64,000 bases of DNA from a candidate division WOR-3 bacterium (GTDB taxonomy: Bacteria; Hydrothermota; Hydrothermia; UBA1063): assembly GCA_039803545.1 (NCBI GenBank), contig JBDRYS010000001.1, positions 1,866 through 65,865 of the forward strand. Reading direction: 5' to 3'. The translations under genes were made by a program, and so were the position numbers. The notes beneath the pieces were generated by a model. That model made no database searches. It worked only from the letters and a program-made list of their open reading frames with translations, and was not told the origin of the DNA. Below are positions 9,597 through 31,396 of the stretch, piece by piece (position 1 is the first letter of the stretch; each line of letters begins with the position of its first letter).

Positions 9597-10661
9597 TTAA
9601 GCCTTCGAATAAAATTTTCCTGGTAATTCTTGAATTAGCCCCTTGATTTCGAGCTGGAATAGAATGGATAAAAGATCGGATACTAAAAGCCCTGTTTCAG
9701 CAATTAGTTCATCGAAGTGCTTGGGTTCGTGATATATCTTCTCAAAAACAATTTTTTCAAGGTCTGTAAGGGAGTCTCCCCTCTCGGACTTTGCCTTTTT
9801 TGTTGACTCTATTCCAAAGTCCTCTAAAATGTCTTCAACGCATGTAACAGGCTTTGCGCCATCTTTAATCAATTTATTGGTCCCCGCTGAAGCTGGGGAA
9901 TTAATGGGTCCAGGTACCGCATATACCTCTTTGCCCAATTCTACAGCCCATCTGGCCGTAATTAAGGCCCCGCTTTTTTCACCGGCCTCAACAATAACGA
10001 CGCAGTCAGACATTCCCGCAATTAGCCTGTTCCTTTTTGGAAAGTTCTCCTTTAAGGGTCTTGTTCCTGGGAAAAATTCAGAAATTAAAGCCCCCGTTTG
10101 AGCGATCTTCTCGAAAAGTTTGCTATTTTCAGGAGGGTATGTCACATCAATTCCACAGCCGAGGATAGAAGTGGTCTTACCGTCCTTTTTTATTGCAGTT
10201 TGGTGTGCTACTGTATCGATTCCCCTTGCTCCACCTGAAACTATGTGAAATTTATTTTCTATGAGTTCTTCGCATAGTTTTCTGGTAACCTGAATTCCGT
10301 AGTTTGTAGGGTTTCGTGTTCCAACGATTGCAATCTTTTTCTCCTTTGGGGGTGGGAGAGTCCCTTTGTAAAATATAACGGGTGGAAAAATTTCTTTTAT
10401 TTTAAACTCTTCAGGATACTCTTGAAAGGTGAAATCGATACATTTTATGCCCCTATCTTTAAGCTGTGAAGCAATTTTTAATGAGAGTTGGAGATTAGCG
10501 CTTTTAATTTGGACTGCTAATTTTTCCGGAACTATCTCTTTGAGTTCCTTAAGGCTTGCCTCGAAGACCTTCTTCGCTGATCCAAAATGGGAAACCAGTT
10601 TTTTGTAATAAACAGGTCCCACTCCTTGAATCGAATACAGAGTATAAATATATTCCTGCAT
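9597..10661 (-). CDS. dprA: DNA processing protein DprA (Smf)
   Basis: Rossmann-like core with GGARGIDTVAHQ, N-terminal SAM-like domain, C-terminal winged helix. Confidence 0.85.
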   Translation of the reverse strand: MQEYIYTLYSIQGVGPVYYKKLVSHFGSAKKVFEASLKELKEIVPEKLAVQIKSANLQLSLKIASQLKDRGIKCIDFTFQEYPEEFKIKEIFPPVIFYKGTLPPPKEKKIAIVGTRNPTNYGIQVTRKLCEELIENKFHIVSGGARGIDTVAHQTAIKKDGKTTSILGCGIDVTYPPENSKLFEKIAQTGALISEFFPGTRPLKENFPKRNRLIAGMSDCVVIVEAGEKSGALITARWAVELGKEVYAVPGPINSPASAGTNKLIKDGAKPVTCVEDILEDFGIESTKKAKSERGDSLTDLEKIVFEKIYHEPKHFDELIAETGLLVSDLLSILFQLEIKGLIQELPGKFYSKA

Positions 10662-10663
10662 CT

Positions 10664-13141
10664 TCAGTTGGGGTAGTAACTCCAGAGGTCGACTTCTGCC
10701 AAGGCGTTTTTAAAATCTTCGTATTTGCTTAAAAGAGAGTTCCTTATGTGCCCAATTTCACTGTTTTTTATGTTCTTTGTAATCTCGTAAAAAGCCAAAG
10801 CATTGAGGGCATTCATACTGACTAACTCCTTAATCTCTTTTGTGTCTGCTTGGTAATTATCATTTTGTAGCATTTTGAGTAGTATCTCAAATAGCCTCTT
10901 CCGTGTGAAAATATATTCGCTCTTCGTCTCAACTGCTTCCAGAAGGGTTCTGGCCTCATCAACCTCATTGTTTTTCAAAAGATTTTGAATTAATGCAAGC
11001 AACATCAAATTGGCTTTGTAAATATTCCCTCTCTTTTTTTCGTTGTTAATCTCTTGTTTTGTAAAGATTAGGCCCTCTTTTGTAGAACCAGACTTGACCT
11101 GCAAAAGCCCAAGGTAAAAACGGTAGGGGTAGTTCGTTTTGGGGTTTATGTTTAGAATATCATCGATTGAAAACCTTATAAAGCTTTCAGCACTACGCGG
11201 TGGCAGTAGGTAGAGGTATATTTTCCCTATCTCTTCGAGCAATGTTTCTTTTAAGTGCTTGTTTTTGATTTCATTCAGCGACCACAACACGTTTTCGATG
11301 TGGGTTAGTGCATCGTGGAATTTAAAAGCGAGGAGCAACATTTCCGCCAATTTTAATTCGAGGAATGTCGTTTTTTCTATACTTTTGGATGCCTTCAGAG
11401 CCTTCGTGTAATATTCTATAGCTTTGCTAATTTTGTTTTTGTAAAATTCACAATCGCCCAAGGTTTCAAAAATATTTACCTTTCCATTTTGAAAAGGGCC
11501 ACTAGACTTAGATTTGAATTTTTCAAGAACCATCTGAGTGTTGCATTCAAGTTTATCTGCGTTGTAATCAATTTTGAGTTTAAGCAATAGTAGTTCCTTT
11601 GATAGCCTTTTTTGTTGTGCAAGATATTCCTTGAGAAATCTTGAGACAGTCTTCGTTTCTCCAAGCTCAGTTAAAAGTTCAATTACTTTTGGAATTAATC
11701 GCTTTTGTTCCTTTGCCTCTGTTTTAAGGCCGTTAATGTAGTCAAGTGCCTTTTGGTACTCACCCATGCTAATAAAAAGATTTATAATGGTTTCGTTTAT
11801 GGATGTTTTTTGCCTTTTTGTTTTTGCAAATAATTTTGCTTTTTTTGCATGTTGATATGCTTTCTCGTATTGTTCTTTCTTTAATTCTTCGTTTATGGCC
11901 TCGTAATAGAATTTAAAGGCGTTTTTGTAATCTCCCGAAAGTTCGAAGTGCCTTGCTATTTCCCAGGTAGCAACTGGAAAACCGTTCATTTTTTTAGTAT
12001 GAAGTAACTGGGCATAATGGCCGTGGATTTTTTTAACTTCTCTCTCAGGTAAATTCAGGAGAGGATGAAATTCTACGACCGGATGGTTAGAGTGAATTTT
12101 GTTCTTTATTATTCTAATAATTCCTTTGCTGCTTAAATTTTCGATAATTTTTTCTATGTTTTGAGTTTTTACTTTTGGAAATAGTTTTATGAGGTCTATA
12201 TTGTCCACCGGCCCTGCGGAAGATAGAATTACATAAGTTACTAATTTTTCGTCTTTGCTCATTGATTCGAAAAATTTTTGCGATTTTTCAGGGTAATATT
12301 CTTCATAGGGAAACTCTGAATTCTCGTTTAAAACCCAACCCGAGTTCTCGTCCCATCTAAAAAAGTTCTTAGAGTTGAGGACTTTTAATATCCAGATGAG
12401 TTTCGAATAACTCTTCATACTTCGGTAGTAAAGAAGTTCTAAAATCTCCCGATTAACATTGGGACTTATGAAGAAAGACTGTAAGGTCTTCTGGACATCT
12501 TCGATGGTTATTGAGTCTATTTTAATGGAGGAATTGGGGTCGCTTATGAGTCTGATTTTTTTGAATCCTTTTTCGTTCCGTATTGTTAAAAAATTCCCCT
12601 TTTCTTCTTCAGCAAGGGTTACTTTGCCATTTGTAAATATCTGTATAGCCTCCACTGCAAGGAATGGATTTTCTTCAGGTAAATCAACAAAAATCTCCTT
12701 ATTATCCGAATCTATTAATTCCGCAACCTTTTTGTAACCTTCAATATTTGGAATATGGAGATGCCTCCTGTTATTGCTAATTTTTTCGTAAAACTTTTGA
12801 AACAGAAGGGCAGGAGGGCTTTCAAACTTTTTCAAGTTAAGAGTTGCGCTGTTTAGTTTTCCTCTTAGAAACTTTTTGTAGATTTCCTGTTGCCTCAATT
12901 TCATTAAAAAACTTTTAGGATCTCTTGTCAATATAAGAAGTGAGGAATTGCTGAAGATGAAAATAGCTTCCTTTCCTGAAGATGTGCTGACTTGCATTAA
13001 AGGTTTAAGGAGCTCGGCTGTTCCAATGAGTGGGTATTCTAAGTAGAGAAGGTGGACATGAGAATCTTTTGTTGAAAAGTGGGCTAAGTGAGTTAAAAAA
13101 TCAAAAAAATTAAAAGCCAATGCAAAATCAGGGTTTTCCAT
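10664..13141 (-). CDS. Large TPR-repeat protein with a degenerate STAND-NTPase-like N-terminal region; hypothetical regulator
   Basis: 825 aa, K/E-rich helical repeats in the C-terminal two thirds; no intact Walker A was found. Ends 3 nt upstream of the dprA start, so it is probably co-transcribed. Confidence 0.45.
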   Translation of the reverse strand: MENPDFALAFNFFDFLTHLAHFSTKDSHVHLLYLEYPLIGTAELLKPLMQVSTSSGKEAIFIFSNSSLLILTRDPKSFLMKLRQQEIYKKFLRGKLNSATLNLKKFESPPALLFQKFYEKISNNRRHLHIPNIEGYKKVAELIDSDNKEIFVDLPEENPFLAVEAIQIFTNGKVTLAEEEKGNFLTIRNEKGFKKIRLISDPNSSIKIDSITIEDVQKTLQSFFISPNVNREILELLYYRSMKSYSKLIWILKVLNSKNFFRWDENSGWVLNENSEFPYEEYYPEKSQKFFESMSKDEKLVTYVILSSAGPVDNIDLIKLFPKVKTQNIEKIIENLSSKGIIRIIKNKIHSNHPVVEFHPLLNLPEREVKKIHGHYAQLLHTKKMNGFPVATWEIARHFELSGDYKNAFKFYYEAINEELKKEQYEKAYQHAKKAKLFAKTKRQKTSINETIINLFISMGEYQKALDYINGLKTEAKEQKRLIPKVIELLTELGETKTVSRFLKEYLAQQKRLSKELLLLKLKIDYNADKLECNTQMVLEKFKSKSSGPFQNGKVNIFETLGDCEFYKNKISKAIEYYTKALKASKSIEKTTFLELKLAEMLLLAFKFHDALTHIENVLWSLNEIKNKHLKETLLEEIGKIYLYLLPPRSAESFIRFSIDDILNINPKTNYPYRFYLGLLQVKSGSTKEGLIFTKQEINNEKKRGNIYKANLMLLALIQNLLKNNEVDEARTLLEAVETKSEYIFTRKRLFEILLKMLQNDNYQADTKEIKELVSMNALNALAFYEITKNIKNSEIGHIRNSLLSKYEDFKNALAEVDLWSYYPN

Positions 13142-13196
13142 TTGCTAAAAGGATAAATCTTTTCCTGTAATCTTTCAAACGGACGGATTTTTAAGG

Positions 13197-13232
13197 CTTC
13201 GACAAAATTTTCCATTTCGACAATTTTGTCGA
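13197..13232 (+). promoter_or_regulatory. Putative enhancer-binding-protein (UAS) site: perfect 7-2-7 palindrome TCGACAATTTTGTCGA (13217-13232) plus upstream half-site TCGACAAAATTTT
   Basis: Seen directly in sequence, about 45 bp upstream of a sigma-54 -24 element. The motif resembles the palindrome at 32432-32450. Confidence 0.5.
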
Positions 13233-13274
13233 GAATGGACAAGGAAGATGCCTTTGAAGAACTAAAAAAGTGTT

Positions 13275-13290
13275 TGGCACAAAATTTGCA
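13275..13290 (+). promoter_or_regulatory. Sigma-54 (RpoN) -24/-12 promoter TGGCACaaaatTTGCA upstream of the 13324 gene
   Basis: Exact match to the TGGCAC-N5-TTGCA consensus, about 33 nt before the ATG, with RBS AGGAGG at 13312-13317. Confidence 0.6.
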
Positions 13291-13323
13291 GAATAATTTT
13301 TAGCACAAAACAGGAGGTGCGAA

Positions 13324-13884
13324 ATGAGGTACACCAACATAATAAAAATAGCATGGCTCCCTCTCCTTCTGGGCTTGGCCTTTGCCCAGGAGAATACAGG
13401 TACACAAAAGGACTCAACAAACAATTACCGCTACCGGGAACAGTACAGGTATCAGGAACACGTCAGGAATCAAGGGGATACGATTAAGGTAATGTCGGGT
13501 GAGAGGATAATGAATCAGGGGGATACGATACAAATTCGGACTACGAAATCTGTTAAAAATCCTGCAGTACAGAGTGAAATGACCGTTGAAAAAACTATAT
13601 CCAAAGATGGAAACACTCTCATTCAGATTGAAAAAACAGTTATCACGCCAAAGGATACTATTACCATTCAAAAGGAAGTGGGTTCAGCGAGCAGAGATAC
13701 TGTGAGGACAAGGGAACGCCAGAGGATAAGGAACGATTCTGGTTGTGATGGAACTCCAGACACGTTAAGGATTAGGGAAAGAGAACACTTGAGATTAAGG
13801 GATGGTAGCTCCTCAGGAAGCGAAGGAATTGGGACTGGTTTAGGATCCGGCGCGACGCAGAGAAGAAGTAGAAGAAGTAATTAA
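13324..13884 (+). CDS. Secreted low-complexity protein (signal peptide; NQGDTI repeats; R/E-rich tail), unknown function
   Basis: N-terminal signal peptide (WLPLLLGLAFAQ), internal short repeats, followed by a strong terminator. Confidence 0.5.
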   Translation: MRYTNIIKIAWLPLLLGLAFAQENTGTQKDSTNNYRYREQYRYQEHVRNQGDTIKVMSGERIMNQGDTIQIRTTKSVKNPAVQSEMTVEKTISKDGNTLIQIEKTVITPKDTITIQKEVGSASRDTVRTRERQRIRNDSGCDGTPDTLRIREREHLRLRDGSSSGSEGIGTGLGSGATQRRSRRSN

Positions 13885-13897
13885 TAGCCAACTCTTT

Positions 13898-13941
13898 GGG
13901 GCGCACACGGTCAAAGACCGTGTGCGCCCCCTTATAATTTT
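13898..13941 (+). terminator. Rho-independent terminator (15-bp GC-rich stem GGGGCGCACACGGTC/GACCGTGTGCGCCCC, loop AAA, T-rich tail)
   Basis: Perfect inverted repeat seen directly, 14 nt after the stop codon of the 13324-13884 gene. Confidence 0.8.
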
Positions 13942-13955
13942 AACAGGAGGTTCAA

Positions 13956-14999
13956 ATGTTAATTTTCATATTGTTTCAGTTAACTCAGCTAAACCTTAGT
14001 TTCCATAGGGGATTCGATACGAATTTGATGCTGGACACCAGTTATCTTCATGATTATTACAACGGGCTGGATCTTACCTTTGGTCACTACCCCATTGAGA
14101 AACCATGGGGATATGAATTGGCTCTTGGTGGTAGCTTTTTTGACAATTACACAAGCATGAACTTTTTAACTTTTCGTGGCAACCTGTCTTATTTTAAGGA
14201 TTTTGGAGAAGCGGGAAACTACATGGAAAGCGGGGTCGATTTTACATGGGATGTTATATCACCGTACAAATCTTTAACTATAACGCCCGGTGTTGCATCT
14301 AAAATTTATCTTGGGGAAAAGAAGATGTTTAATATTATCCCGAGCTGGGATTTAAATCTCTTGTTAGCTGACGAAAGTTATAATTTCGACAATATTCCAA
14401 AATTGAGGCTTAATGGCAATTTCTTTGGAATTTCAGCGGCACTAACAGGGATGTTAAAATGGAGGTACGGTGCAACCTATGTTGTCTCTTCAACAGGGAT
14501 AGGATATTCGCCTTACGCGGCCCGTTATACCTGGGTTACAAAAAGTCTTTCTGCGGGAAATGCCGGTATCAGATTGGGAAAAAGGTTTGGTGGCCTTCTG
14601 GGTATATTCTATGAATTTGATTATCACTTTTTGCCCACCAGCAACTTAGTAAGTGTGGATAATCTAAAACAAAGGCTTGATCCACTTAACGAGGAAGAGT
14701 TTGCGTACAGTGGAATTTCCAATACCTTTAATGTAAGTTTAATAGTTAGCAAGGTAGCAATTGATTATACCTTTGCGTTGAGTTCTAAGGATTATAGTAT
14801 TGTCGATACTACCCAATCACCTGTTTCACGCCATGACAATGTGTTGGTTCACAGCATTACTGGCAGTATTTCCCTTTTTAAAAAGAGATTTGAGGTTGGT
14901 TTATCCGGCTTTTTCCGTTACGAATCCAATACCTCAACAATGCAAGGATTTTCCTATACACGAAAAGAGGGTGGCGTTGGGCTTTATATGGGCTTATAG
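13956..14999 (+). CDS. Hypothetical outer-membrane beta-barrel-like protein
   Basis: Alternating hydrophobic/aromatic beta-strand-like pattern, rich in G/Y/S/T; no catalytic motif identified. Confidence 0.4.
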   Translation: MLIFILFQLTQLNLSFHRGFDTNLMLDTSYLHDYYNGLDLTFGHYPIEKPWGYELALGGSFFDNYTSMNFLTFRGNLSYFKDFGEAGNYMESGVDFTWDVISPYKSLTITPGVASKIYLGEKKMFNIIPSWDLNLLLADESYNFDNIPKLRLNGNFFGISAALTGMLKWRYGATYVVSSTGIGYSPYAARYTWVTKSLSAGNAGIRLGKRFGGLLGIFYEFDYHFLPTSNLVSVDNLKQRLDPLNEEEFAYSGISNTFNVSLIVSKVAIDYTFALSSKDYSIVDTTQSPVSRHDNVLVHSITGSISLFKKRFEVGLSGFFRYESNTSTMQGFSYTRKEGGVGLYMGL

Positions 15000-15002
15000 G
15001 AG

Positions 15003-15434
15003 GTGTTTATGCACTTTTTGCTTTTAGTTGTTTTAACGGTGATCCCAAAGTATTTTTACAATGTTAGTGATACTGCAACGGTTAAGGGAGAAGTACTCAG
15101 TGTTGAAAGGGAGCAGATAGAAGGAAGTGAAGTTTATCATGTTGTGTTATCTTTTAAAAGCGTTGACACCACTTTAAAAGTGGTATTGGGACCAGCCTGG
15201 TTCATTGAGGAGATACCGAGGAGAGGTGATTCCTGTGTGGTAAGTGGGTCTGTTTTTAGGACAGAAAATGGAATATACTTAATCGCGAGAAAACTGTTTA
15301 ACAGCAGAACAAAGACCTCTATGTCACTGAGGACAGAAAGTGGATTTCCTCTCTGGTATAGACAAAGAGCTTCTGAAAGGTTTATGGATCGGGCTGAAGG
15401 GGGGCAGAATAGGCAGAGGCAAAGGCAAAGGTAA
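15003..15434 (+). CDS. Small secreted/periplasmic hypothetical protein (possible OB-fold), immediately upstream of the sensor kinase
   Basis: N-terminal hydrophobic signal-like segment; C-terminal QNRQRQRQR tail; start abuts the histidine kinase gene. Confidence 0.4.
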   Translation: MFMHFLLLVVLTVIPKYFYNVSDTATVKGEVLSVEREQIEGSEVYHVVLSFKSVDTTLKVVLGPAWFIEEIPRRGDSCVVSGSVFRTENGIYLIARKLFNSRTKTSMSLRTESGFPLWYRQRASERFMDRAEGGQNRQRQRQR

Positions 15435-15437
15435 TTA

Positions 15438-16667
15438 ATGAATTTTAGAAAACTTGTTCTTGTTTTCTTCATTGATATTGTGTTAGTAGTTTCTTTTTTC
15501 GTCTATTTAGTCCAAGAACAGCAAAGGATTTTTAGGGAAGAAAGCAAAAGAGACGCTCAACTTCGATCTGTGCTTGTACGCCAGATGTTTTCCCACCTGG
15601 TAAAGAGTGGAAAAGAAATAGACGACTCACTCTTGAAAGTTGTAGTAGATTCTACAAACCTTGATTATGTTGCCCTCCTGGGAGGAAGAAAACTTCTTCA
15701 CTGGGCTTCGAAATATGAAGGTTTTTTACCCGTCGAGAGTTTTGAAGAGATAAAACCGGGTCGAGTGAGGTTGATTAAACTTCCAGATTATTCGATAGTC
15801 GAATTTTCTTTTTATTTAGATTCCACTATAGTTGTTTGTGGCTTTTCCGATGAACCTTTTTCCAAATTAACGAGGATCACTGTGTATGGTATGGCATTTT
15901 TAGTGGTAGTGTTGTTGATAATATTCGGCATTACTACGTTTTCCTTTTATTTTTTAAATCGGAAGCTCAAAGAGAGGGAGCTGGTCCTCGTCAAAGAGGA
16001 AGAAAAGGCAAAGTATTTCAGGGAACTTGCAGGATTTTCAAGCCAGGTTGCTCATGAGATAAAGAACCCTTTAAATTCAATAAGTATGGCTATACAGCTT
16101 GCCAAACAGAAAGGTTTGTCAGGAGATTTGCTGAAAATTATAGAAGATGAAACAAACAGGTTAAATTCGATAGTTAAACGCTTTTCTTCTGTTTCCAAAG
16201 GGATAGAGATGCACTTGGAAGAGGTAGATTTGACGAAAGTGGTAAGTGATGTTATCACTGATGCAAAGGTCTTTGCCACGGCATATGGGGTTAAAATAGA
16301 ATTTAATGCAAATGGGTTTTCTCAAAAGGTTAAAACGGACCCCTTATTGCTAAAACAGGCTCTTTTTAATATAATTAAAAATGCCATCGAGGCCTTTGAA
16401 GGAGTTTTTAGAGAAGAGAAAGTGGTAAAAGTCAACCTCAAAAAAGAAAAAAGGAAGGTTATTATATCCATTGAAGATAATGGTTCGGGAATGACTGATG
16501 AGGAGGTAAAGAGGGCCTTTGACTTATTTTACTCGACCAAATCTCAGGGTATGGGACTGGGTTTAAGTGTGGTGCGAAGAATTATGGATGCCCTTGGTGG
16601 AGAAGTCAGGTTGGTGAGCAAGAAAGGCGAAGGGACGAAGGTGGAGTTAATTCTTACCCATGGCTGA
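15438..16667 (+). CDS. Sensor histidine kinase (two TM helices flanking an extracytoplasmic sensor region; HisKA + HATPase_c)
   Basis: H-box FSSQVAHEIKNPLNSI; N/G boxes IIKNAIEAF, IEDNGSGM, GMGLGLSVV. Confidence 0.85.
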   Translation: MNFRKLVLVFFIDIVLVVSFFVYLVQEQQRIFREESKRDAQLRSVLVRQMFSHLVKSGKEIDDSLLKVVVDSTNLDYVALLGGRKLLHWASKYEGFLPVESFEEIKPGRVRLIKLPDYSIVEFSFYLDSTIVVCGFSDEPFSKLTRITVYGMAFLVVVLLIIFGITTFSFYFLNRKLKERELVLVKEEEKAKYFRELAGFSSQVAHEIKNPLNSISMAIQLAKQKGLSGDLLKIIEDETNRLNSIVKRFSSVSKGIEMHLEEVDLTKVVSDVITDAKVFATAYGVKIEFNANGFSQKVKTDPLLLKQALFNIIKNAIEAFEGVFREEKVVKVNLKKEKRKVIISIEDNGSGMTDEEVKRAFDLFYSTKSQGMGLGLSVVRRIMDALGGEVRLVSKKGEGTKVELILTHG

Positions 16668-18039
16668 GGAATATACAATTTTAGTCGTCGAAGACGAAGA
16701 AAATGCGCGTAAACTCCTTCTGGAATATTTAGGGAATAACGGATATAAAGTTTTTGGCTGTGCCACCGGCGAGGAGGCACTTCAATTTTGCAGGGAAAAT
16801 TTTGTCGATTTTGCACTGCTCGATATAAGGCTACCCGGAGTGAGCGGGATAGATCTCATTCCAAAGCTTAAGGAAACAAATCCCCTTATAAAGGTCATAA
16901 TGGTTACTGCCCTTGGTGATGTAGATTTGGTTGTAAGGGCTATGTCTATGGGCGCTTCAGATTACGTGGTTAAACCCGTAAACCTTGAAAAACTGTTAGC
17001 AAAAATCGAGGAGATAAAGCCCAAACATATTGAGGAAGTGGAATTAAAGGCTATCAAAGATATCTCTGAACTTCACCTCCCTGAGTTTGTATACGCATCT
17101 GACAAGATGAAGAAAGTGCTTTATTATGTAGTGAGAGCAGCCCGATCCAATGCGCCCTGTTTGATAACAGGTGAAACGGGTACAGGAAAGACTGCCCTTG
17201 CACGAATTATCCATTCCCTTTCTTCGAGGAGAGACGGCCCCTTTGTGGATGTTCATTTACAATCTATACCTGAGACCCTCATTGAAAGTGAACTTTTCGG
17301 ATATGAAAAGGGAGCCTTTACCGGTGCCGATAAGAGCTACGAGGGGCTTATAGTAAGGGCTCAAGGAGGCACCCTTTTCCTTGATGAAATCGGGGAGCTC
17401 AAAAGAGAAATGCAGGTAAAATTGCTTAAGGTGATTGAAGAAAAAATGGTTAGACCGGTAGGTGGAACGCAGCCCAAAAAGGTGGATTTTCGTTTAATTA
17501 CTGCAACTAACAGGGATATTAAAAAAGAAGTCAAACAGGGCACTTTTCGAGAGGATCTTTACTATCGAATCAATGTGATTGAAATTGCTGTTCCACCCCT
17601 AAGGGAGCGGAGGGAGGATATTCCTGTTTTATTGGATTATTTTCTCAAGAAATACAGTAAATCAGAAGGAAAAGAAATAAAGGGCTTTTCAAAGGAGGCG
17701 CTAAAATACCTTTTAAGGTATCACTACCCTGGCAATGTTAGAGAGTTGAGCAATATTGTGGAGAGAGCAACCGTAATGGCTACCAAAAACGTAATAGACG
17801 TGAGTGATTTACCTGAAGAAGTTGTGAGAAGTAGTGCTGCTCATAGCAAATTTGTTTCAGGCGGTGTAACTACTTTGCCAGAGGTCTTAAAGGAGATCGA
17901 AAAGAATATGATCCTTGAAGCTCTAAAGGAGGAAAATTTTGTAAAATTAAGGGCAGCGAAGAAACTTGGGATTTCAGAACGTGTTCTAAGGTATAAAATG
18001 AAGTTATATGGAATTGAAGATGGAAAGGGCGATAGTTAA
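16660..18039 (+). CDS. Sigma-54-dependent response regulator (NtrC family: receiver + AAA+ sigma-54 activator + Fis-type HTH)
   Basis: Receiver (LLDIRLPGVSGIDL), Walker A GETGTGKT, GAFTGA sigma-54 contact motif, ESELFGYEKGAFTGA, C-terminal HTH (KLRAAKKLGISERVLRYKMK). Confidence 0.9.
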   Translation: MAEEYTILVVEDEENARKLLLEYLGNNGYKVFGCATGEEALQFCRENFVDFALLDIRLPGVSGIDLIPKLKETNPLIKVIMVTALGDVDLVVRAMSMGASDYVVKPVNLEKLLAKIEEIKPKHIEEVELKAIKDISELHLPEFVYASDKMKKVLYYVVRAARSNAPCLITGETGTGKTALARIIHSLSSRRDGPFVDVHLQSIPETLIESELFGYEKGAFTGADKSYEGLIVRAQGGTLFLDEIGELKREMQVKLLKVIEEKMVRPVGGTQPKKVDFRLITATNRDIKKEVKQGTFREDLYYRINVIEIAVPPLRERREDIPVLLDYFLKKYSKSEGKEIKGFSKEALKYLLRYHYPGNVRELSNIVERATVMATKNVIDVSDLPEEVVRSSAAHSKFVSGGVTTLPEVLKEIEKNMILEALKEENFVKLRAAKKLGISERVLRYKMKLYGIEDGKGDS

Positions 18040-19192
18040 GGGGAACCCCATCCAAATGTCCAATCATCCGTGGGTATACTCAGGCAATATCTTATCATGC
18101 AACGCACCCAAGGGCGCCTGTGTGGAGGTTTATTCAAGAAAGGGTGTATTTCTGGGATCGGCTATTTACAATCCTGATTCTTCTATCGCTCTAAGGTTTT
18201 ATTCCCGGGAAAGGGAAGAACTCAGTTATTTGTTCATTAAGGAAAAACTCATAGTGGCTGATAAAAAACGGAGAAAGCACTTTAATAAGCCTTATTATAG
18301 AGTTGCCTTCAGTGAGAGCGATGATTTGCCCGGTCTAATAGTTGATCGATATGGAGATGGCTTTGTTTTTCAAATAAATTCTTACGGGATGGAGGTAAGG
18401 CGGGAAGAGGTTATTAAGGCCATCTTTGATGCCTTTTCCCCTTCTTTCATTGTAGAAAAGAGCGAGGGGCACGCAAGAAAAGTCGAAGGTCTAAAGGAGA
18501 AGACAGAAGTTGTTGTAAATAAGGCATCTTATAATTTGTCAAGAATTATTGTGGAGGAGGACGGCCTTAAATTCTATGTAGACCTTATAAATGGTCAAAA
18601 GACTGGTTTCTTTTACGACCAGAGATACAATCGCGCCTTAATTGAAGATAGTTTGAAGGGAAATTATGTTCTGGATCTCTTTTCATACATAGGTGCCTTT
18701 TCTCTAAGGGCTCTAAGAAAGGGTAAAAAGGTATTTGCCATTGATATTTCAGAGGAGTCGATCGCTTTATTAAAAGAGAACGTAAAGCTGAACGGGCTCC
18801 CCGAGGAAAATTTAGTTTGTGAGGTGAAGGATGCCTTTGAATTCTATAAAGAAATTGCCACTTTAAAGATGAAGTTTGACTTTGTCATCGTTGATCCGCC
18901 TTCCGTTGTTAGGCGTGCATCGGACCTTGAAAATGCCTTAAAATCATATATAACGCTACTAAATGGAGTTTTTAGCATGTTAGAAAAGGGTGGTGTTGTA
19001 GCTGTTTTTTCTTGCAGTAATCATATTAAATGGGAGCATTTATACTCTGTAGCCCAGAGAAGCACTGGGTTAAGCCAGAGGAATTTCAGAGTAGTGAGGC
19101 TTTTAAATCAGGATTTCAGGGATCATATAGTACCTGTGAATTTTCCCGAAGCAGAATATTTAAGGGGTTTTCTTTTAGAGGAGGATTTGTAG
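18008..19192 (+). CDS. Class I SAM-dependent rRNA methyltransferase with N-terminal PUA-like domain (RlmI/RlmK-like)
   Basis: SAM-binding VLDLFSYIGAFSL and IVDPPS motif; domain order resembles 23S rRNA m5C1962 methyltransferases. Confidence 0.7.
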   Translation: MELKMERAIVKGNPIQMSNHPWVYSGNILSCNAPKGACVEVYSRKGVFLGSAIYNPDSSIALRFYSREREELSYLFIKEKLIVADKKRRKHFNKPYYRVAFSESDDLPGLIVDRYGDGFVFQINSYGMEVRREEVIKAIFDAFSPSFIVEKSEGHARKVEGLKEKTEVVVNKASYNLSRIIVEEDGLKFYVDLINGQKTGFFYDQRYNRALIEDSLKGNYVLDLFSYIGAFSLRALRKGKKVFAIDISEESIALLKENVKLNGLPEENLVCEVKDAFEFYKEIATLKMKFDFVIVDPPSVVRRASDLENALKSYITLLNGVFSMLEKGGVVAVFSCSNHIKWEHLYSVAQRSTGLSQRNFRVVRLLNQDFRDHIVPVNFPEAEYLRGFLLEEDL

Positions 19193-21624: not shown

Positions 21625-22030
21625 ATTAGTTGTGGTTAGGGTGCAATTCCCGGAAACTGCAGAAGAGAGCCCTATTGTGTATTTAAAAGAAAAAGAAGGT
21701 GATCGTGAACTTCCCATAGTGATTGGAATTAACGAAGCTCAATCGATCAACATGGCTCTCAGTAATTTTAAAACGCCGAGGCCCCTTACCCACGATTTGA
21801 TTGTAGATATTTTCAAAGCCCTCGGATTAAGGTTAGAGAGGGTTGTAATAAATGATTTGAGAGAAAACACCTATTATGCAAGGCTTATCCTTTTTGATGA
21901 GGAACATAAGACTCTTTATAGCATTGATGCCCGACCGTCAGACTCCATAGCAATTGCACTCCGTGCCAAGGCCCCCATTTTTGTCTCGGAGTATGTTTTA
22001 AAAAAGGCATTATCCCTTGAAGGAAGCTAA
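21611..22030 (+). CDS. Bifunctional nuclease (BFN / DUF151) family protein
   Basis: VVRVQFPETAEESPIVYLKEKEGDRELPIVIG...THDL motif set typical of the DUF151 family. Confidence 0.65.
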   Translation: MQVVELVVVRVQFPETAEESPIVYLKEKEGDRELPIVIGINEAQSINMALSNFKTPRPLTHDLIVDIFKALGLRLERVVINDLRENTYYARLILFDEEHKTLYSIDARPSDSIAIALRAKAPIFVSEYVLKKALSLEGS

Positions 22031-22952
22031 TAGGGGTCTTCTAAGGGTAAATTTTTCTGGTATAGAATTTGAAACTCCTTTTTTGCCCGCATCCGGTACC
22101 TTTGGTTATGGAGCTGAACCCGGGAACTTTAAGGCAGTTCAATGTTTTGGTGGCCTCGTGACTAAGGGACTTTCTTATAAAAAAAGGGAAGGAAATCCTC
22201 CACCGCGAATAAAGGAAACACCCTGTGGGCTAATAAACTCGATTGGACTTGAAAATCCTGGAATCGAAGAGTTTATCGAATCGATACTTCCAGAGATGAT
22301 TTCTTTTGGTAAGCCAATAATAGTAAATTTGGCAGGGCACGATGAAAGAGAATTCCTTTTGATGACCGAAAGATTAAACCCCTTTAAGGAGATCGTTGCC
22401 TATGAGATTAATATCTCTTGCCCTAATGTGTCAAAAGGCGGCTTGGAATTTTTCAAGGATAAAAAGGTTTTAAAATCCCTTCTAAGAAAAATAGCAGAAA
22501 TTTCAGAAAAAGTTAACATAGTTAAAATTCCCCCTGATATTTTTAACTATGAGGAGTTGGTCGATTTGCTTCTTTCGGAAGGATTCAGGAATATCACTGT
22601 TGCGAATACTTACCCGGCGATGGTGCTGGACATTGAAAATTTAGACTTTTACTTTGTTAGAAAATCAGGAGGACTTTCTGGCCCAGCCATATTTCCTTTA
22701 ACTTTGAGACTTGTGTATGAAATTGCAAGGAAATATAAGGAGATTAACATCATAGCCTCGGGTGGCGTGGTAAGTTATGTAGAAGCAATCCAGTACTTCC
22801 TTGTGGGTGCAAAATTGATAGAAATTGGCTCGGGAAACTTTATAGACCCAAACATTGTTTGCAAGATTAAGGCAGACTTAGAAAATTATTTGTTCTCAAA
22901 GGGATTTTCTTCAATTTCCGAGGTAATTGGAAGACTCCTCAACTTACAATAA
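22017..22952 (+). CDS. pyrD: Dihydroorotate dehydrogenase catalytic subunit (class 1)
   Basis: FLPASGTFGYG, GLINSIGLENPG, TIM-barrel FMN-binding motifs, C-terminal GSGN. Confidence 0.8.
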   Translation: MKEANRGLLRVNFSGIEFETPFLPASGTFGYGAEPGNFKAVQCFGGLVTKGLSYKKREGNPPPRIKETPCGLINSIGLENPGIEEFIESILPEMISFGKPIIVNLAGHDEREFLLMTERLNPFKEIVAYEINISCPNVSKGGLEFFKDKKVLKSLLRKIAEISEKVNIVKIPPDIFNYEELVDLLLSEGFRNITVANTYPAMVLDIENLDFYFVRKSGGLSGPAIFPLTLRLVYEIARKYKEINIIASGGVVSYVEAIQYFLVGAKLIEIGSGNFIDPNIVCKIKADLENYLFSKGFSSISEVIGRLLNLQ

Positions 22953-23070
22953 GGGATATAGCTTGAAAGAGATTTTGCCTACTTATCAATATTTTTAACG
23001 GAGTATTTTGGCTTTTACTTTACAGGTTTTTTATTTTGGTTTAAAATTTTTACAGAAATGGGAGTGCTAA

Positions 23071-24195
23071 ATGGAAGGTAGGGTCTTAGTTGTAGATCCT
23101 GATACAAAGGTAGCAAGAGAAATTCAGGATGCCCTTGGTGACATAGGTCTGACAGTCTACACTGCAGGGTCCTACGATGAGGCGCAATCTTTTTTAAGTT
23201 TCTACAAAATTGATTACATGATCATGGACCTTATATTACCGGACAAGAATGGAATCGACCTTTTGATTTATACAAAGCAGCTCAATCCTTCCATCAAGGT
23301 TTATGTCTATACAGATGTAAAGGGTGCTACTATAGAGCGTTCGGTTCTCAAAAAGGGTGCTGATGCTTTCATTAACAAGACTGGCAATTTCAGAGAGGAT
23401 TTTAAAAATATATTCTTTGCTCCTCCGAAAGAAGAACCAAGGGAGCAGGTTGAGGCCGTCGAGGGATTTAAGGGCACCGTCACAGGAGTGGACATTATCG
23501 ATATGGTTCAGGCCCTCGCCCTTATGGGTAAATCCGTTATGCTAAGCTGTAGGGATTTGAAAACTCGGAAAGAGGGAGTAATTGTTTTTAAAAATGGGGA
23601 GATTGTAGATGCTAAAACTGGTTCTAAGCGAGGAGAGGAAGCTCTTTTTGAAATTTTGAGTTGGAAAGACGGGGTTTTTGAAACTAAAAAATATACAGAA
23701 GAGCCTGAGAGGACAATTAATGCACCGGTGGATTTGTTGCTTTTAAATTTTGCCCGTCTTAGAGATGAAGCAATGGAGGAGAAAGCTGGAGTATCTTCCC
23801 TCACGCTTAATGACGTTGTCAGGTTCTTTCATGCAGAAATTCCAGGTTTTATTGCTGGTATGGTCTTTGACTACGAGGAAGCTACTCCTATCGCCTTTGA
23901 TACAATTCTTCCTGGAAAAACTTTTCAGGCTTCTGCAACTTTATACGGAGCCATTTTAAAGGCTGCCCAGGAAGCAATGGAGATAGTGACAGAGGGAAAA
24001 GAGAAGCGGGAGGAGCTCTCGGAAATTATTATCACTGATAAGAATGATCACGTGGTACTTTTCCCGCTTCCAGTAAACAATTTTGCCGTTTTTATCCTTG
24101 TATCGAGGGACACACCTATTCAGGAAGTGCGCTCTGTAGTTTTAAAGTATATTCCTGATATCATCAGGTTGCTTAAAGAGGAAAAGATTTCTTAA
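23071..24195 (+). CDS. Response-regulator receiver + DUF4388 + C-terminal roadblock/LC7-like domain protein
   Basis: Receiver (D at MIMDLILPD, K at FINK), then GTVTGVDIIDMVQALALMGKSVMLS...GEEALFEILSWKDGVFE (DUF4388 signature), then a roughly 110-aa alpha/beta C-terminal region. Confidence 0.65.
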   Translation: MEGRVLVVDPDTKVAREIQDALGDIGLTVYTAGSYDEAQSFLSFYKIDYMIMDLILPDKNGIDLLIYTKQLNPSIKVYVYTDVKGATIERSVLKKGADAFINKTGNFREDFKNIFFAPPKEEPREQVEAVEGFKGTVTGVDIIDMVQALALMGKSVMLSCRDLKTRKEGVIVFKNGEIVDAKTGSKRGEEALFEILSWKDGVFETKKYTEEPERTINAPVDLLLLNFARLRDEAMEEKAGVSSLTLNDVVRFFHAEIPGFIAGMVFDYEEATPIAFDTILPGKTFQASATLYGAILKAAQEAMEIVTEGKEKREELSEIIITDKNDHVVLFPLPVNNFAVFILVSRDTPIQEVRSVVLKYIPDIIRLLKEEKIS

Positions 24196-24196
24196 A

Positions 24197-25048
24197 GTGG
24201 TCCTCCCTTTTGATGCAAAGATTGTCGAAATTCTCAAAAAGAAAGGTATCTCCTTAGAGACCCTTTTGGAAGGGTATCTTCGCGGAAGACACAGGAGCCC
24301 CTTTTATGGCCATAGCCTGGAATTTAAAGACCTCAGACCTTATGAAAAGGGTGACGATTTAAAGTTCATCGATTGGAGACTCTACGGAAGGAGTGAAAAA
24401 TTTTTTGTAAAAAAGTTTGAAGAGGAAACCAATGTTAGAGTTTTTATCGCTCTCGATATTTCTCGTTCTATGTCTCTATATGATAAAGGAAAGATGGCGA
24501 GGGGTGTCGCGGCGGCGATTGCCCTTTTGTCTTACTACTCGAGGGACGCCATTGGCCTTTATCTTTTTAACGAAGGAGAAGTTTTCTTCTTGCCTCCTTC
24601 AACCACCTATAAAAATCTATTCCTTCTTCTTGAAAGCCTTGATAAATTCGAGGATTCTGGGAGGACCAATTTTGTTTTAGCGATGCTTGGCCTCGATGAG
24701 AGGGTTAGGAAGAGAAGTCTACTGGTGGTAATATCCGATTTTTTGAGTGAGATTGAAAGTATAAAAAAGTTCGTGAGGTTTTTTAAGGGCAAAGGGCATG
24801 AAATTATACCTTTGATAGTTTCATCTCAACGGGAAAAAAGTTTGTCAATGCACGAGGCGAGATTAAAAGATATTGAGACAGGCTATGAGCTCAGTTTGAG
24901 TAGAGTCGAGAGTTTTCGATATGGAGAAATGATCAATCAGCATTATACCGAGCTTAAAGTTCTCTTAAGAAATTTCGGCATCCCTTTTTTTGAATTCCAG
25001 GCGGAGATGGATTTAACATTGCAATTAAGGAGCTTTTTGGAAGGATGA
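24197..25048 (+). CDS. DUF58 (vWA-like, MoxR-associated) protein
   Basis: GHSLEFKDLRPYEKGDDLKFIDWRLYGRSEKFFVKKFEEE followed by the DxSxS-like VFIALDISRSM MIDAS motif. Confidence 0.75.
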   Translation: MVLPFDAKIVEILKKKGISLETLLEGYLRGRHRSPFYGHSLEFKDLRPYEKGDDLKFIDWRLYGRSEKFFVKKFEEETNVRVFIALDISRSMSLYDKGKMARGVAAAIALLSYYSRDAIGLYLFNEGEVFFLPPSTTYKNLFLLLESLDKFEDSGRTNFVLAMLGLDERVRKRSLLVVISDFLSEIESIKKFVRFFKGKGHEIIPLIVSSQREKSLSMHEARLKDIETGYELSLSRVESFRYGEMINQHYTELKVLLRNFGIPFFEFQAEMDLTLQLRSFLEG

Positions 25049-26460
25049 ACTTCCTGAGCCCGGTTTTTTTGTATTTTTTGCCACTTTCCCTTCTACCCCT
25101 AATTTCACTTTTTCTTAAAAAACGTAGTTCAAGAATTAAGTTCGTCTCCTGGCTCTTTTTACTAAAAGATAGTGAATTTGCCAGGAAAAGAAAATTTCAT
25201 AGAAACTTGATCATTATCTTAAGGTGTCTCATTTTGGCGCTTCTACTAATTTTTTTGGCAAAGCCCATACCTTCTCGGTATGCCTTTAGGAAGATTTATT
25301 TTGAGACGGGTATTTTTTCCCAAAAAGCAGAGGCAAAGAACCGTAAATATTTGCGCTCCCTAATGGGTTATTTTGGGGGGAGGGTGGATGCCTTTTGTGA
25401 TCCTCTGAAGCCAGAACAGAAACTAAATGGGAAAATTTATATAGTATCTGACTTTTCTGATCCTGGCATATATCAACGATTTTCGGGTGGTTTTTACTTT
25501 GATACCCTTTCGATATCAAATGCAGGGATAAATTCCGTAAATTTTGACCCGGTGAGCAAAGCTTACTACTTGAAAATTACCAATTACAACAAGAAGGACT
25601 CGGTTTTTCATATCGTAGTTTATATGAACTCCAGAAAACTTTCGGAAAGTAGTTTTATTCTACCTAAGACTAAAACAATTTTGTGGAAACAAGAGATACC
25701 TGAAGGTGGAAGGCTTCTTAAGATTTGCCTTATGCCAGAGGATGACATTTTACTGGATAACTGCCTTGAACTCTCAGCCCCTGAGAAACTGAAATATTAC
25801 CTCGCTTCTCTCAACCTCTGTGTAGAAAACTTTATGCAAATTGTTGGAATCAAAACCTCTTTGGACAGTGCTGACGTTCTAATATCCTTTAACAGGGTTC
25901 TTAAGCCTGGAAAAAAGACAAAGGAAGTCATAATATTTTTTGATAAGCCCGTGGAAGGTATAAAATCGGTAATTGACGATTCCTTAAAGGAGTCGGGTCC
26001 TTTTAAAATTTCGGGGTGGAACTTTGGAAAAGTTTTTTTGTCAGATACCTCAAAAGGTTTTACCGATGTTAGAAGTTTCTTACAGAGAGCCACTCTTAAG
26101 TTAAACTTAAATGGAGTTACGTATGTGTTCGTCGGCCTTGTTCCGGACATTGAGAAAAACGATGCAGTATATTGCCCGGATTTCTGGAGTTACTTCTTGC
26201 AACTACTAAATATTAAGCCTGTAATAGCTTATACTACTACAAAAGAAAGGGCAGGGAAAATTTTGAACGATACGCTGTTTTTGCCTGACACTTTACAGAC
26301 AAATACTTCTCGAGCTCAGGAAGTTAGCTTGAGTTCCCACTATTTGCCTCTTCCGGAAGTAGTCAAAACGGTTAACACAATAAGGTATTTAATATTGGGC
26401 CTTTTAATTTTGCTTGTAGCCTTGGAGTTTTACTTAACCTTCAGGTATTTCTTTGATTGA
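25045..26460 (+). CDS. Membrane protein with BatA-type N-terminal double-TM domain (aerotolerance-operon-like), large soluble region and C-terminal TM
   Basis: MNFLSPVFLYFLPLSLLPLISLFLKKR...WLFLLKD matches the N-terminal double-transmembrane domain of BatA/BatB-like proteins; C-terminal hydrophobic anchor. Confidence 0.55.
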   Translation: MNFLSPVFLYFLPLSLLPLISLFLKKRSSRIKFVSWLFLLKDSEFARKRKFHRNLIIILRCLILALLLIFLAKPIPSRYAFRKIYFETGIFSQKAEAKNRKYLRSLMGYFGGRVDAFCDPLKPEQKLNGKIYIVSDFSDPGIYQRFSGGFYFDTLSISNAGINSVNFDPVSKAYYLKITNYNKKDSVFHIVVYMNSRKLSESSFILPKTKTILWKQEIPEGGRLLKICLMPEDDILLDNCLELSAPEKLKYYLASLNLCVENFMQIVGIKTSLDSADVLISFNRVLKPGKKTKEVIIFFDKPVEGIKSVIDDSLKESGPFKISGWNFGKVFLSDTSKGFTDVRSFLQRATLKLNLNGVTYVFVGLVPDIEKNDAVYCPDFWSYFLQLLNIKPVIAYTTTKERAGKILNDTLFLPDTLQTNTSRAQEVSLSSHYLPLPEVVKTVNTIRYLILGLLILLVALEFYLTFRYFFD

Positions 26461-29551: not shown

Positions 29552-30044
29552 TCCCATAACCCTTGGGCATGTGGATATTGTTAAGCGGGCATCCCGTCTC
29601 TTTGAAAGGGTCATTGTAGTGGTTGCAAATCCTGTTCACAAAAAATCTCTCTTTAGCCTCGAAGAAAGGGTTAGAATGGTGGAAGAAAGTGTTGCAAATC
29701 TCCCCAATGTTGAGGTTAGAACCTTGGAATCGAAGCTCCTTATGGATTTCTGTAAGGATAACAATATTGGAATTGTGATTAGGGGTATGAGGGCGGTTTC
29801 TGATTTTGAATACGAGTTTAAAATGGCCTGGATGAACAGAAAACTGTTTCCCGAGATTGAGGTGGTTTTTCTCTTGCCTTCTGAAGAATATACCTACCTT
29901 TCATCAACCCTTGTTAAGGAGATAGCGACCCTTGGAGGGGATATTTCTCCACTGGTCCCGGAGCCAGTGCTTAAATATGCCCATTTAATCAGGGAGAGAA
30001 TCTACAGGGCTGGATTGGGTGATGAAAAAGAACATTCTTTATGA
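29502..30044 (+). CDS. coaD: Phosphopantetheine adenylyltransferase
   Basis: YPGTFDPITLGHVDIVKRA (HxGH nucleotidyltransferase motif); conserved rsmD-coaD linkage. Confidence 0.9.
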   Translation: MDRQKLYTTACYPGTFDPITLGHVDIVKRASRLFERVIVVVANPVHKKSLFSLEERVRMVEESVANLPNVEVRTLESKLLMDFCKDNNIGIVIRGMRAVSDFEYEFKMAWMNRKLFPEIEVVFLLPSEEYTYLSSTLVKEIATLGGDISPLVPEPVLKYAHLIRERIYRAGLGDEKEHSL

Positions 30045-31396
30045 GCTTAGAATTTTTGCTTGCAGGATTACCGGAAGAAATTAAAAAGGCCGAAATTTCA
30101 GGTAATATAAATTTGGCAAGAAAGCTTATTGCCTACTGGCTTTCTAAAGACATTCCAGAAATCCATAGGAAAAGGCTCGAGTTCGAGGGCATCAGGCTTC
30201 AAAGATTGCATCTTTATTATCCGTTTACTTACAACGAGGCTTTAGAGGAGGCAAAGAAATTGATAAATAATTTCACCGAAGATGAGTTTAAAAATTACAT
30301 AGAGGAAGGCGCAATTGACTTTATTGAATTTGATGGAGTCAGGTATTTTGAAAGAAGATTCGCTTACAATTTGGGATTCAGATTTCCAGATATAAAGCGC
30401 CGCATGAAAGAAGAGGAAGGGCAAAAGAAGAAAAGGGAGATCCTTGAGGGAAGATTAAAGGCGCTGATTCAGGGAGATACGCCTAAAAACTATAAGGTCA
30501 AGGCAAAGATAACTTTTCGCGTTAGGGAACCAAAGGGTAAAAGGGTGAAGGTCTGGCTACCTATTCCAAAGGAGTCTTATTACCAGGAGAAAGTCAAGGT
30601 TTTGAATTTTAGCCATCCTTCCTCCTACATCGCCCCGGAAAAGGTAGGACAAAGAACAATTTATATGGAGGGGAAGGATACCGAGGAATTTTCTGTATCT
30701 TTTGAGTATGTGATAAAAGAAGTTTGGAACCGCAAACTCTTTGAAGGTACTCTCAATGCTTTTAAAGGGCTGAAGACAAAGAGTGGGATTCAAAATCTTA
30801 CTGACTTCCTGAAAGAGAAACCACCCCACATCACCTTCACACCCCTCCTCAGGTGTCTTCTTGGTGAAATAATTCAGGGTAAGGATAGTATCTTCGAAAA
30901 GGTTTTTGCAATTTATGATTTTGTGACCTCGAGGGTATGGTATTCATACGTGAAGCCTTACATTTATTATGACCATATTCCCCATTTTGTTGTGGAAAAT
31001 TTGAGGGGCGATTGCGGTTTTCAGGCCCTTCTTTTCATTACCCTTTGTCGGATGGCGGGTATTCCTGCTCATTGGCAATCGGGTTGGTATATAACTCCCT
31101 ATGGGGCCTCACCCCATGACTGGGCAATTATCTATCTCCCTGAATTCGGTTTTGTGCCCGTTGATCTTTCCTTTGGCGGAAAGGATAAGGCTGACATAAA
31201 TAGAAAGGCATTCTATTTCGGCAATCTCGATGGTTTTAGGATGATTGCCAATGATGAGTTTCAGGAAGATTTTGACCCACCGACAAAATTCATAAGGGAG
31301 GACCCTTTCGATAATCAGGTGGGTGAGGCAGAGTATGAGGATGAGAAGGCTTTGGGAGAGCATGGTATTGAGGTGTTAAGTTTTGAGGAGGTTTAG
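30041..31396 (+). CDS. Transglutaminase-like cysteine protease domain protein
   Basis: C-terminal core GDCGFQALLFITLCRMAGIPA ... PHDWAIIYL ... VPVD (Cys-His-Asp triad arrangement). Confidence 0.65.
   Translation: MSLEFLLAGLPEEIKKAEISGNINLARKLIAYWLSKDIPEIHRKRLEFEGIRLQRLHLYYPFTYNEALEEAKKLINNFTEDEFKNYIEEGAIDFIEFDGVRYFERRFAYNLGFRFPDIKRRMKEEEGQKKKREILEGRLKALIQGDTPKNYKVKAKITFRVREPKGKRVKVWLPIPKESYYQEKVKVLNFSHPSSYIAPEKVGQRTIYMEGKDTEEFSVSFEYVIKEVWNRKLFEGTLNAFKGLKTKSGIQNLTDFLKEKPPHITFTPLLRCLLGEIIQGKDSIFEKVFAIYDFVTSRVWYSYVKPYIYYDHIPHFVVENLRGDCGFQALLFITLCRMAGIPAHWQSGWYITPYGASPHDWAIIYLPEFGFVPVDLSFGGKDKADINRKAFYFGNLDGFRMIANDEFQEDFDPPTKFIREDPFDNQVGEAEYEDEKALGEHGIEVLSFEEV

Follow-up and report, generated by a model that had tools for sequence, protein, structure and literature searches.

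In a 64-kb stretch of DNA from a WOR-3/Hydrothermota bacterium (hereafter the window), three tightly packed genes on the + strand, called here g1, g2 and g3, lie at positions 23071-26460. WOR-3/Hydrothermota are little-known bacteria of hot springs and vents. The three genes code for a protein composed of receiver (REC), PATAN (DUF4388) and Roadblock/LC7-like domains, a DUF58 protein, and a membrane protein with a BatA-type N-terminal anchor (BatA_N), respectively. We propose, with a probability of about 50%, that they form a conserved operon specific to WOR-3/Hydrothermota and derived from a MoxR-DUF58-BatA_N module, in which the signalling adaptor g1 occupies the slot of the MoxR ATPase and the module is signalling-gated. 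The gene coordinates and domain calls given in an earlier note on this DNA proved correct in Pfam, TIGR02226 and structure-model analyses.

Conservation of the operon in Hydrothermota

A word-indexed search collected 20 homologues of g1, all from WOR-3/Hydrothermota, and when 185,579 species genomes were scanned, the family turned up in 10 species representatives. The earlier note had raised the question of synteny in related genomes. Ten other Hydrothermota genomes have a complete locus, and all of them keep the g1-DUF58-g3 order, even where g1 identity falls to 48%; an eleventh relative, L018, is a contig fragment and lies outside this set. With 10 further occurrences in the lineage, the arrangement is not due to chance. 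The most conserved of the three genes is g1, with 73, 53 and 48% identity to the window protein in L001, L004 and L002, respectively. The corresponding values are 57, 38 and 36% for DUF58, and for g3 they are 35% in L001 and 28% in L004, with no match in L002 at E<=1e-3.

The three genes are tightly coupled. Direct reading of the g1/g2 junction showed a TAA stop codon at 24193-24195 and a GTG start codon at 24197, and thus a 1-nt spacer in place of the 1-nt overlap reported before. In most genomes g1 precedes DUF58 at 1-4 nt. The window g2 and g3 share 4 nt (ATGA), and the convergent prfB gene, 2 nt past the end of g3, closes the unit.

The flanks of the operon vary, as g1 can be preceded by nothing, by a saccharopine-dehydrogenase gene, or by a block of genes for a cyclase/STAND protein, a cyclic nucleotide monophosphate (cNMP)-binding protein and a secreted protein. 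Two forms were distinguished. In form A, found in the seven species of the window clade, pyrD is followed by a gap or the saccharopine-dehydrogenase gene and then by g1-DUF58-g3, and residue 53 of g1 is Asp (window, L001, L009, L010, L011, L013 and L016). The 411-426-aa gene found between pyrD and g1 in L010, L011 and L016 is this dehydrogenase and is unrelated. In form B (L004/L012, L002/L015, L014, L017 and L104), pyrD is directly followed by a giant STAND/TPR protein, after which come a 155-aa cNMP-binding protein, a 420-517-aa protein and g1, and residue 53 is Glu throughout. In L004 and L104, the giant protein includes an adenylate/guanylate-cyclase domain. The 420-517-aa protein (L002 8727-10004, L004 8451-10004 and orthologues) is weakly related between clades; by eye it has a hydrophobic, signal peptide-like N-terminus, and its C-terminus gives a weak match (0.0025) to Por_Secre_tail of the type IX secretion system (T9SS). 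The window has no homologues of these sister-clade genes for the cyclase, cNMP-binding and secreted proteins.

Except in the L004 lineage, form B also has a Pfam-less gene coding for 490-504 residues between g1 and DUF58, which overlaps both. Its product appears by eye to be beta-rich and is possibly an outer-membrane barrel.

Among the loci examined, the five that have cyclase/STAND-TPR and cNMP-binding genes directly upstream of g1 (L002, L004, L014, L017 and L104) have Glu as residue 53, and the seven species devoid of upstream signalling genes have Asp. This pattern may reflect a change of input, with cAMP in place of phosphorylation, and phylogenetically it possibly represents a single event. 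The distant g1 homologue P0021 lies in a different context, with a kinase gene and an EF-G-like gene as neighbours.

The g1 protein, a REC-PATAN-Roadblock adaptor

The g1 protein combines one input domain, REC, with two protein-binding domains. Pfam detected REC and PATAN; the PF14332 match spans profile positions 1-121 of 122 with about 100 residues. The C-terminal tail (residues ~246-374) has no Pfam match at E<=0.1, Robl_LC7 included, and a profile of it gave zero matches to PDB sequences using hmmsearch. An AlphaFold2 model of the tail built from 14 homologues has a mean predicted local distance difference test score (pLDDT) of 85, a predicted TM-score (pTM) of 0.80 and an α-β-β-α-β-β-β-α topology. 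The top matches of this model in a Foldseek search of the PDB are exclusively MglB, bacterial or archaeal Roadblock proteins and LAMTOR/Rag C-terminal domains, with 1j3w, 3kye, 3t1s and 6hjm at TM-scores of 0.75-0.79 (E ~1e-6). The predicted structure thus makes the C-terminal domain a Roadblock at the level of the fold, outside Pfam sequence membership. As the sequence-level tests failed, it is the model that decides this assignment, and with it the receiver-DUF4388-roadblock architecture first suggested for g1.

Alignment of the receiver with CheY placed D9, P10, D53, T81 and K103 opposite D12, D13, D57, T87 and K109, respectively. The window protein therefore has the phospho-acceptor Asp of response regulators (D53) and their conserved Thr (T81) and Lys (K103). 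The position of CheY D13, followed by D11, is occupied by Pro in nearly all members of the g1 family, which makes the Mg2+ pocket atypical, and the whole family may consist of pseudo-receivers. Furthermore, the window clade has Asp as residue 53, and the other clades, which represent half of the family, have Glu.

The DUF58 protein and the BatA-anchored protein

The start position of g2 matches those of its orthologues. Its MIDAS (metal ion-dependent adhesion site) motif is invariant across Hydrothermota and MoxR-linked homologues, and in an alignment of both sets D181 is intact, as are all other columns that do not vary among the MoxR-linked homologues. As all family-invariant residues are kept, including the MIDAS, the alignment indicates that the DUF58 protein of the operon is not decaying and is constrained as in MoxR-linked systems.

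The g3 protein has transmembrane (TM) segments at residues ~5-24, 52-74 and 445-466, with a fast-evolving, lineage-specific middle part. Searched exhaustively with a profile, 1.84 billion representative proteins yielded only about seven full-length clusters; the body of g3 has no relatives outside the lineage in this search, and the anchor alone matches there. The AlphaFold2 model (pLDDT 77) shows a TM-loop-TM unit followed by an α/β part, a β-sandwich, another α/β part and the C-terminal TM segment, and the loop is of low confidence (pLDDT <50 at residues 26-45). A vWA domain was sought without success, as neither Pfam nor a comparison of the model with the PDB returned a vWA match. The search for another known fold returned just weak immunoglobulin-like sandwich matches with TM-scores <=0.16. 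Thus, the label 'vWA/Bat-like' given to this system before fits DUF58 and the N-terminal anchor of g3 but does not extend to the body of g3, which lacks a vWA fold.

The description of TIGR02226 has the N-terminus outside and the bulk of the protein in the periplasm. The experimental topology of the BatA-type protein BB0173 also places the bulk of that protein in the periplasm (PMC5700661). By analogy, g3 is predicted to have its N-terminus out and its bulk in the periplasm, in which case only its TM1-TM2 loop, about 30 residues long, would face the cytoplasm.

Genetic contexts of DUF58 genes and absence of a local MoxR

We built a hidden Markov model (HMM) of MoxR from 17 open reading frames (ORFs) upstream of metagenomic DUF58 genes, one of which matches Pfam AAA_3 at 2e-62. 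At a cutoff as permissive as E<=10, it gave zero matches in the six-frame translations of the window and of every Hydrothermota locus, the loci spanning ±8-10 kb around g1 as far as the contigs extend. The initially proposed lack of a local ATPase holds for MoxR, and in the relatives no MoxR gene sits just outside the operon, an arrangement that would have implied a simple rearrangement. The only G..G.GK[ST] Walker A motif in an ORF of the window belongs to a sigma-54 regulator. No ORF of the window codes for an MglA-type P-loop protein, and tblastn of the MglA-like protein of an Acidobacteriota locus described below (L019) gave no matches in the window or the Hydrothermota loci. A literature search on MoxR or MglA in Hydrothermota found nothing.

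A DUF58 profile scan yielded 80 metagenomic loci, 61 of which are informative. MoxR is directly upstream of DUF58 in 38 of the 61 and 0.9-2.9 kb upstream in five more, making 43 in all (~70%). The other 18 have no MoxR nearby, and several of them have a gene for a small TPR lipoprotein in the slot. MoxR is thus the usual but not the obligatory neighbour of DUF58, and the claim of the earlier note that DUF58 almost always follows MoxR was too strong. Neither PATAN nor Roadblock neighbours were found in the 80 loci; the sole REC match among them, in L024, is an ordinary NarL-type regulator. In a second recurrent MoxR-less context (L050, L070, L075, L077, L083 and L088), a 158-181-aa TPR lipoprotein resembling YfiO/BamD is encoded directly upstream of DUF58, often with a 1-4-nt overlap.

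Outside the lineage, the closest homologues of g2 (33-36% identity) are found in operons with the order DUF4159-MoxR-DUF58-BatA_N/vWA-large protein, which is why we propose derivation from a MoxR-DUF58-BatA_N module. In the case of the nearest one (33% identity), MoxR is 3 nt upstream of DUF58 and a BatA_N+vWA protein is encoded downstream. This operon shows that g1 sits where MoxR sits, as had been proposed.

Comparison with known systems

As in the 'Bat/aerotolerance-like' MoxR-DUF58-BatA operons of Bacteroides, Borrelia (bb0170-0176), Riemerella and Rhizobium (RL3499-3502), DUF58 is translationally coupled to a BatA-anchored membrane protein (PMC5700661, PMC11834572), and the MIDAS and family invariants of DUF58 are conserved as in operons of the MoxR (MRP subfamily)-DUF58-BatA/vWA type. 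In contrast with these operons, there is no local MoxR, a REC-PATAN-Roadblock gene occupies its slot, and the BatA_N protein is devoid of a vWA domain. We saw no BatB/C/D/E-type genes coding for vWA, TPR or SH3 proteins in the window operon or in the Pfam tables of its relatives. For lack of MoxR, of a vWA domain on the BatA_N protein and of BatB-E genes, the operon does not belong to the Bat/MoxR systems.

PATAN is a protein-protein output domain that acts on membrane machinery and binds PilB1 and PilC (bioRxiv 10.1101/2021.06.11.447907), and the literature agrees with the link of DUF4388-receiver proteins to motility and polarity given in the earlier note. Like the PatA-type regulators (PatA, PixG, PixE and LsiR), whose PATAN is a protein-binding output domain at the membrane, g1 combines REC with PATAN. 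Unlike them, it has the order REC-PATAN rather than PATAN-REC, an additional Roadblock domain, the P10 pocket and no chemotaxis-type operon. The reversed domain order sets it apart from the PatA type.

The g1 tail shares with MglB, the Roadblock-fold GTPase-activating protein of MglA in Thermus and Myxococcus, the same fold including the C-terminal helix. In contrast with MglB, it has only 10-14% identity and no Robl_LC7 match, it forms part of a larger protein, and neither the window nor the Hydrothermota loci yielded a GTPase partner. PATAN-MglB/MglA neighbourhoods have been recorded (Wuichet and Sogaard-Andersen 2014, PMC4316618), for which that article cites Makarova et al. 2006. The combination of PATAN with REC and Roadblock in g1 resembles these neighbourhoods. 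It differs from them in that g1 fuses all three domains, no MglA-like GTPase is encoded nearby, and the partners are DUF58 and a BatA_N protein.

The nearest relative of g1 outside the lineage is a 402-aa REC-PATAN protein of an Acidobacteriota metagenome-assembled genome, L019. The genes at 8122-16722 of that locus code for a sigma-54 regulator, the REC-PATAN protein, a 123-aa Roadblock-like ORF, a 505-aa MglA-like protein and a hybrid kinase, an order that fits the published PATAN-MglB/MglA neighbourhoods. The Roadblock-like ORF has no Pfam match and shares an EIPGFIA motif with g1, and the 505-aa protein consists of an MglA-like N-terminal GTPase (GPALAGKTT...NKRD) fused to a long extension. 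From its sequences, L019 looks like an unfused counterpart of g1 together with its GTPase. The Hydrothermota g1 looks like a fused REC-PATAN-Roadblock module put into the MoxR slot of a DUF58-BatA_N operon. All parts of this operon come from known families, and combinations of REC, PATAN and Roadblock are already on record; we found no description in the literature of a stable operon link between REC-PATAN-Roadblock and DUF58-BatA_N without a local MoxR.

A possible mechanism and its alternatives

In a signalling-gated module, g1 would dimerize via its Roadblock domain, as MglB does, and the state of the receiver would determine how available its PATAN and Roadblock surfaces are. For the window clade, this state would depend on phosphorylation of D53, and in form B on the fixed Glu together with input from the cAMP module. 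The g1 surfaces might dock on cytoplasmic DUF58, or else recruit DUF58 to the membrane or bind the membrane complex. DUF58 would then engage the basic/acidic TM1-TM2 loop of g3 via its MIDAS, and g3 would control an envelope function carried by its own lineage-specific periplasmic domain. In line with this proposal, a WOR-3 strain in culture has two membranes (PMC12285271); pili were also seen in it, and motility was not.

Several points weigh against this proposal. Operon linkage alone is no proof of contact between g1 and DUF58 or between g1 and g3, and the role given to the g3 loop is purely conjectural. Control of g1 by phosphorylation is uncertain, given the Pro at the D13 position and Glu53 in half of the family. 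The g1 and DUF58 genes of one clade are separated by an unrelated gene of ~490 codons. As 18 of the 61 outside loci also have no nearby MoxR, DUF58 may need no adjacent partner at all. Lastly, a MoxR gene may be present elsewhere in the genome.

This last point is the basis of an alternative in which a MoxR encoded elsewhere still drives DUF58-g3, nothing has been replaced, and g1 is an added regulator or a mere co-transcribed neighbour. The retention by DUF58 of every residue invariant in its MoxR-linked homologues is consistent with it, and unlinking does happen, as the five loci with MoxR 0.9-2.9 kb away and the 18 with none nearby attest. Nevertheless, MoxR is missing from the 64 kb of the window and from ±8-10 kb around g1 in the 10 complete related loci, and g1, the most conserved gene, holds the MoxR position at 1-4 nt in most genomes. 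We regard a remote MoxR as possible, if somewhat unlikely. The proposal of a signalling-gated operon with g1 in the MoxR slot can also be taken further, to say that g1 has taken over from MoxR as the cytoplasmic controller of an ATPase-free DUF58-BatA_N module gated by phosphorylation or cAMP; the odds are clearly against this stronger version. Were g1 indeed a substitute for MoxR, DUF58 would be the first partner other than a GTPase for an MglB-like domain.

It is improbable that g1 belongs to a polarity or pilus-control circuit of the MglA/MglB type, with the GTPase encoded elsewhere and DUF58-g3 as passengers in the transcript: MglB structures are the best matches of its Roadblock domain, a Roadblock-like ORF and an MglA-like GTPase follow its relative in L019, PATAN-MglB/MglA neighbourhoods exist, PATAN binds the pilus components PilB1 and PilC and the cultured WOR-3 strain has pili (PMC12285271), but no MglA homologue is found in the window or any Hydrothermota locus, and the g1-DUF58-g3 linkage survives all rearrangements seen in the lineage, which would be unusual for unrelated passengers.

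Other features of the locus

The coordinates of the features are collected in Table 1. A 118-nt AT-rich gap separates pyrD from g1. It contains the best-scoring site of the region in a consensus scan (10/12 matches), a candidate sigma-70-like promoter, with the caveat that the number of sites in the region is not above the level of shuffled sequence. The element is kept in L009 and L013, and loosely in L001; a conserved promoter-like element of its own is in line with the coupling of the unit.

There is no histidine kinase gene in the g1-g2-g3 operon. The only kinase near g1, about 5 kb upstream of it, has 409 residues, and its gene overlaps that of a 459-aa sigma-54-type response regulator. 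The two probably form their own cognate pair.

A transglutaminase-core protein is encoded 3.6 kb downstream of the operon in the window and within 1 kb of it in L002 (15766-17097, - strand); in L001 its gene is at 17043-18389. MoxR-DUF58-transglutaminase triads are known in Bifidobacterium. A functional link of this gene to the operon is conceivable, and plain synteny may also account for its position.

Table 1. Features of the g1-g2-g3 locus (window positions unless a locus is named)
Feature	Position	Strand	Description or basis
Histidine kinase	15438..16667	+	409 aa
Kinase and sigma-54-type regulator	15438..18039	+	Overlapping genes
pyrD	22017..22952		Upstream of g1
Promoter candidate TTTACA-17-TAAAAT	23019..23047	+	pyrD-g1 gap; consensus scan; putative function
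g1	23071..24195	+	374-aa orphan response regulator-like adaptor, REC-PATAN-Roadblock; Pfam and structure model
REC, residues 5-107	23083..23391	+	Pfam Response_reg, 4e-14
P10 codon	23098..23100	+	Position of CheY D13
Residue 53 codon	23227..23229	+	Position of CheY D57
PATAN (DUF4388), residues 134-234	23470..23772	+	PF14332, 3e-15; without alpha-clip insertion
Predicted Roadblock/LC7 (MglB-like) fold, residues ~246-374	23806..24192	+	AlphaFold2 model and Foldseek
g2	24197..25048	+	283-aa DUF58 protein (cytoplasmic, vWA-like), GTG start; Pfam DUF58 1e-37 and VWA_2
MIDAS motif D87-x-S89-x-S91	24455..24469	+	Invariant across Hydrothermota and MoxR-linked homologues
g3	25045..26460	+	471-aa three-TM inner-membrane protein; Pfam BatA 1-74 and TIGR02226, nothing else
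BatA-type N-terminal double-TM anchor	25045..25266	+	Predicted cytoplasmic basic loop of ~30 residues; Pfam BatA, TIGR02226, TM segments
Transglutaminase-core protein	30041..31396	+
Inserted 490-504-aa gene, form B	L002 11134-12627; L014 11137-12621; L017 11134-12603; L104 8376-9890		Between g1 and DUF58

Significance

Among the envelope-associated bacterial proteins without a known mechanism, those of the DUF58 and BatA_N types rank with the most widespread, and according to a recent review nothing clarifies how MoxR and DUF58 are related (PMC12067865). The operon links two modules for which there was no earlier joint report. A lineage in which a signalling adaptor stably holds the ATPase slot amounts to a natural experiment, which suggests that the protein encoded ahead of DUF58 acts on DUF58 itself, and that its input can be an on/off signal as opposed to ATP-driven remodelling. 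The operon would also extend the known partners of PATAN and Roadblock domains past small GTPases and pilus motors. As a cultured WOR-3 strain exists (PMC12285271), the idea is testable.

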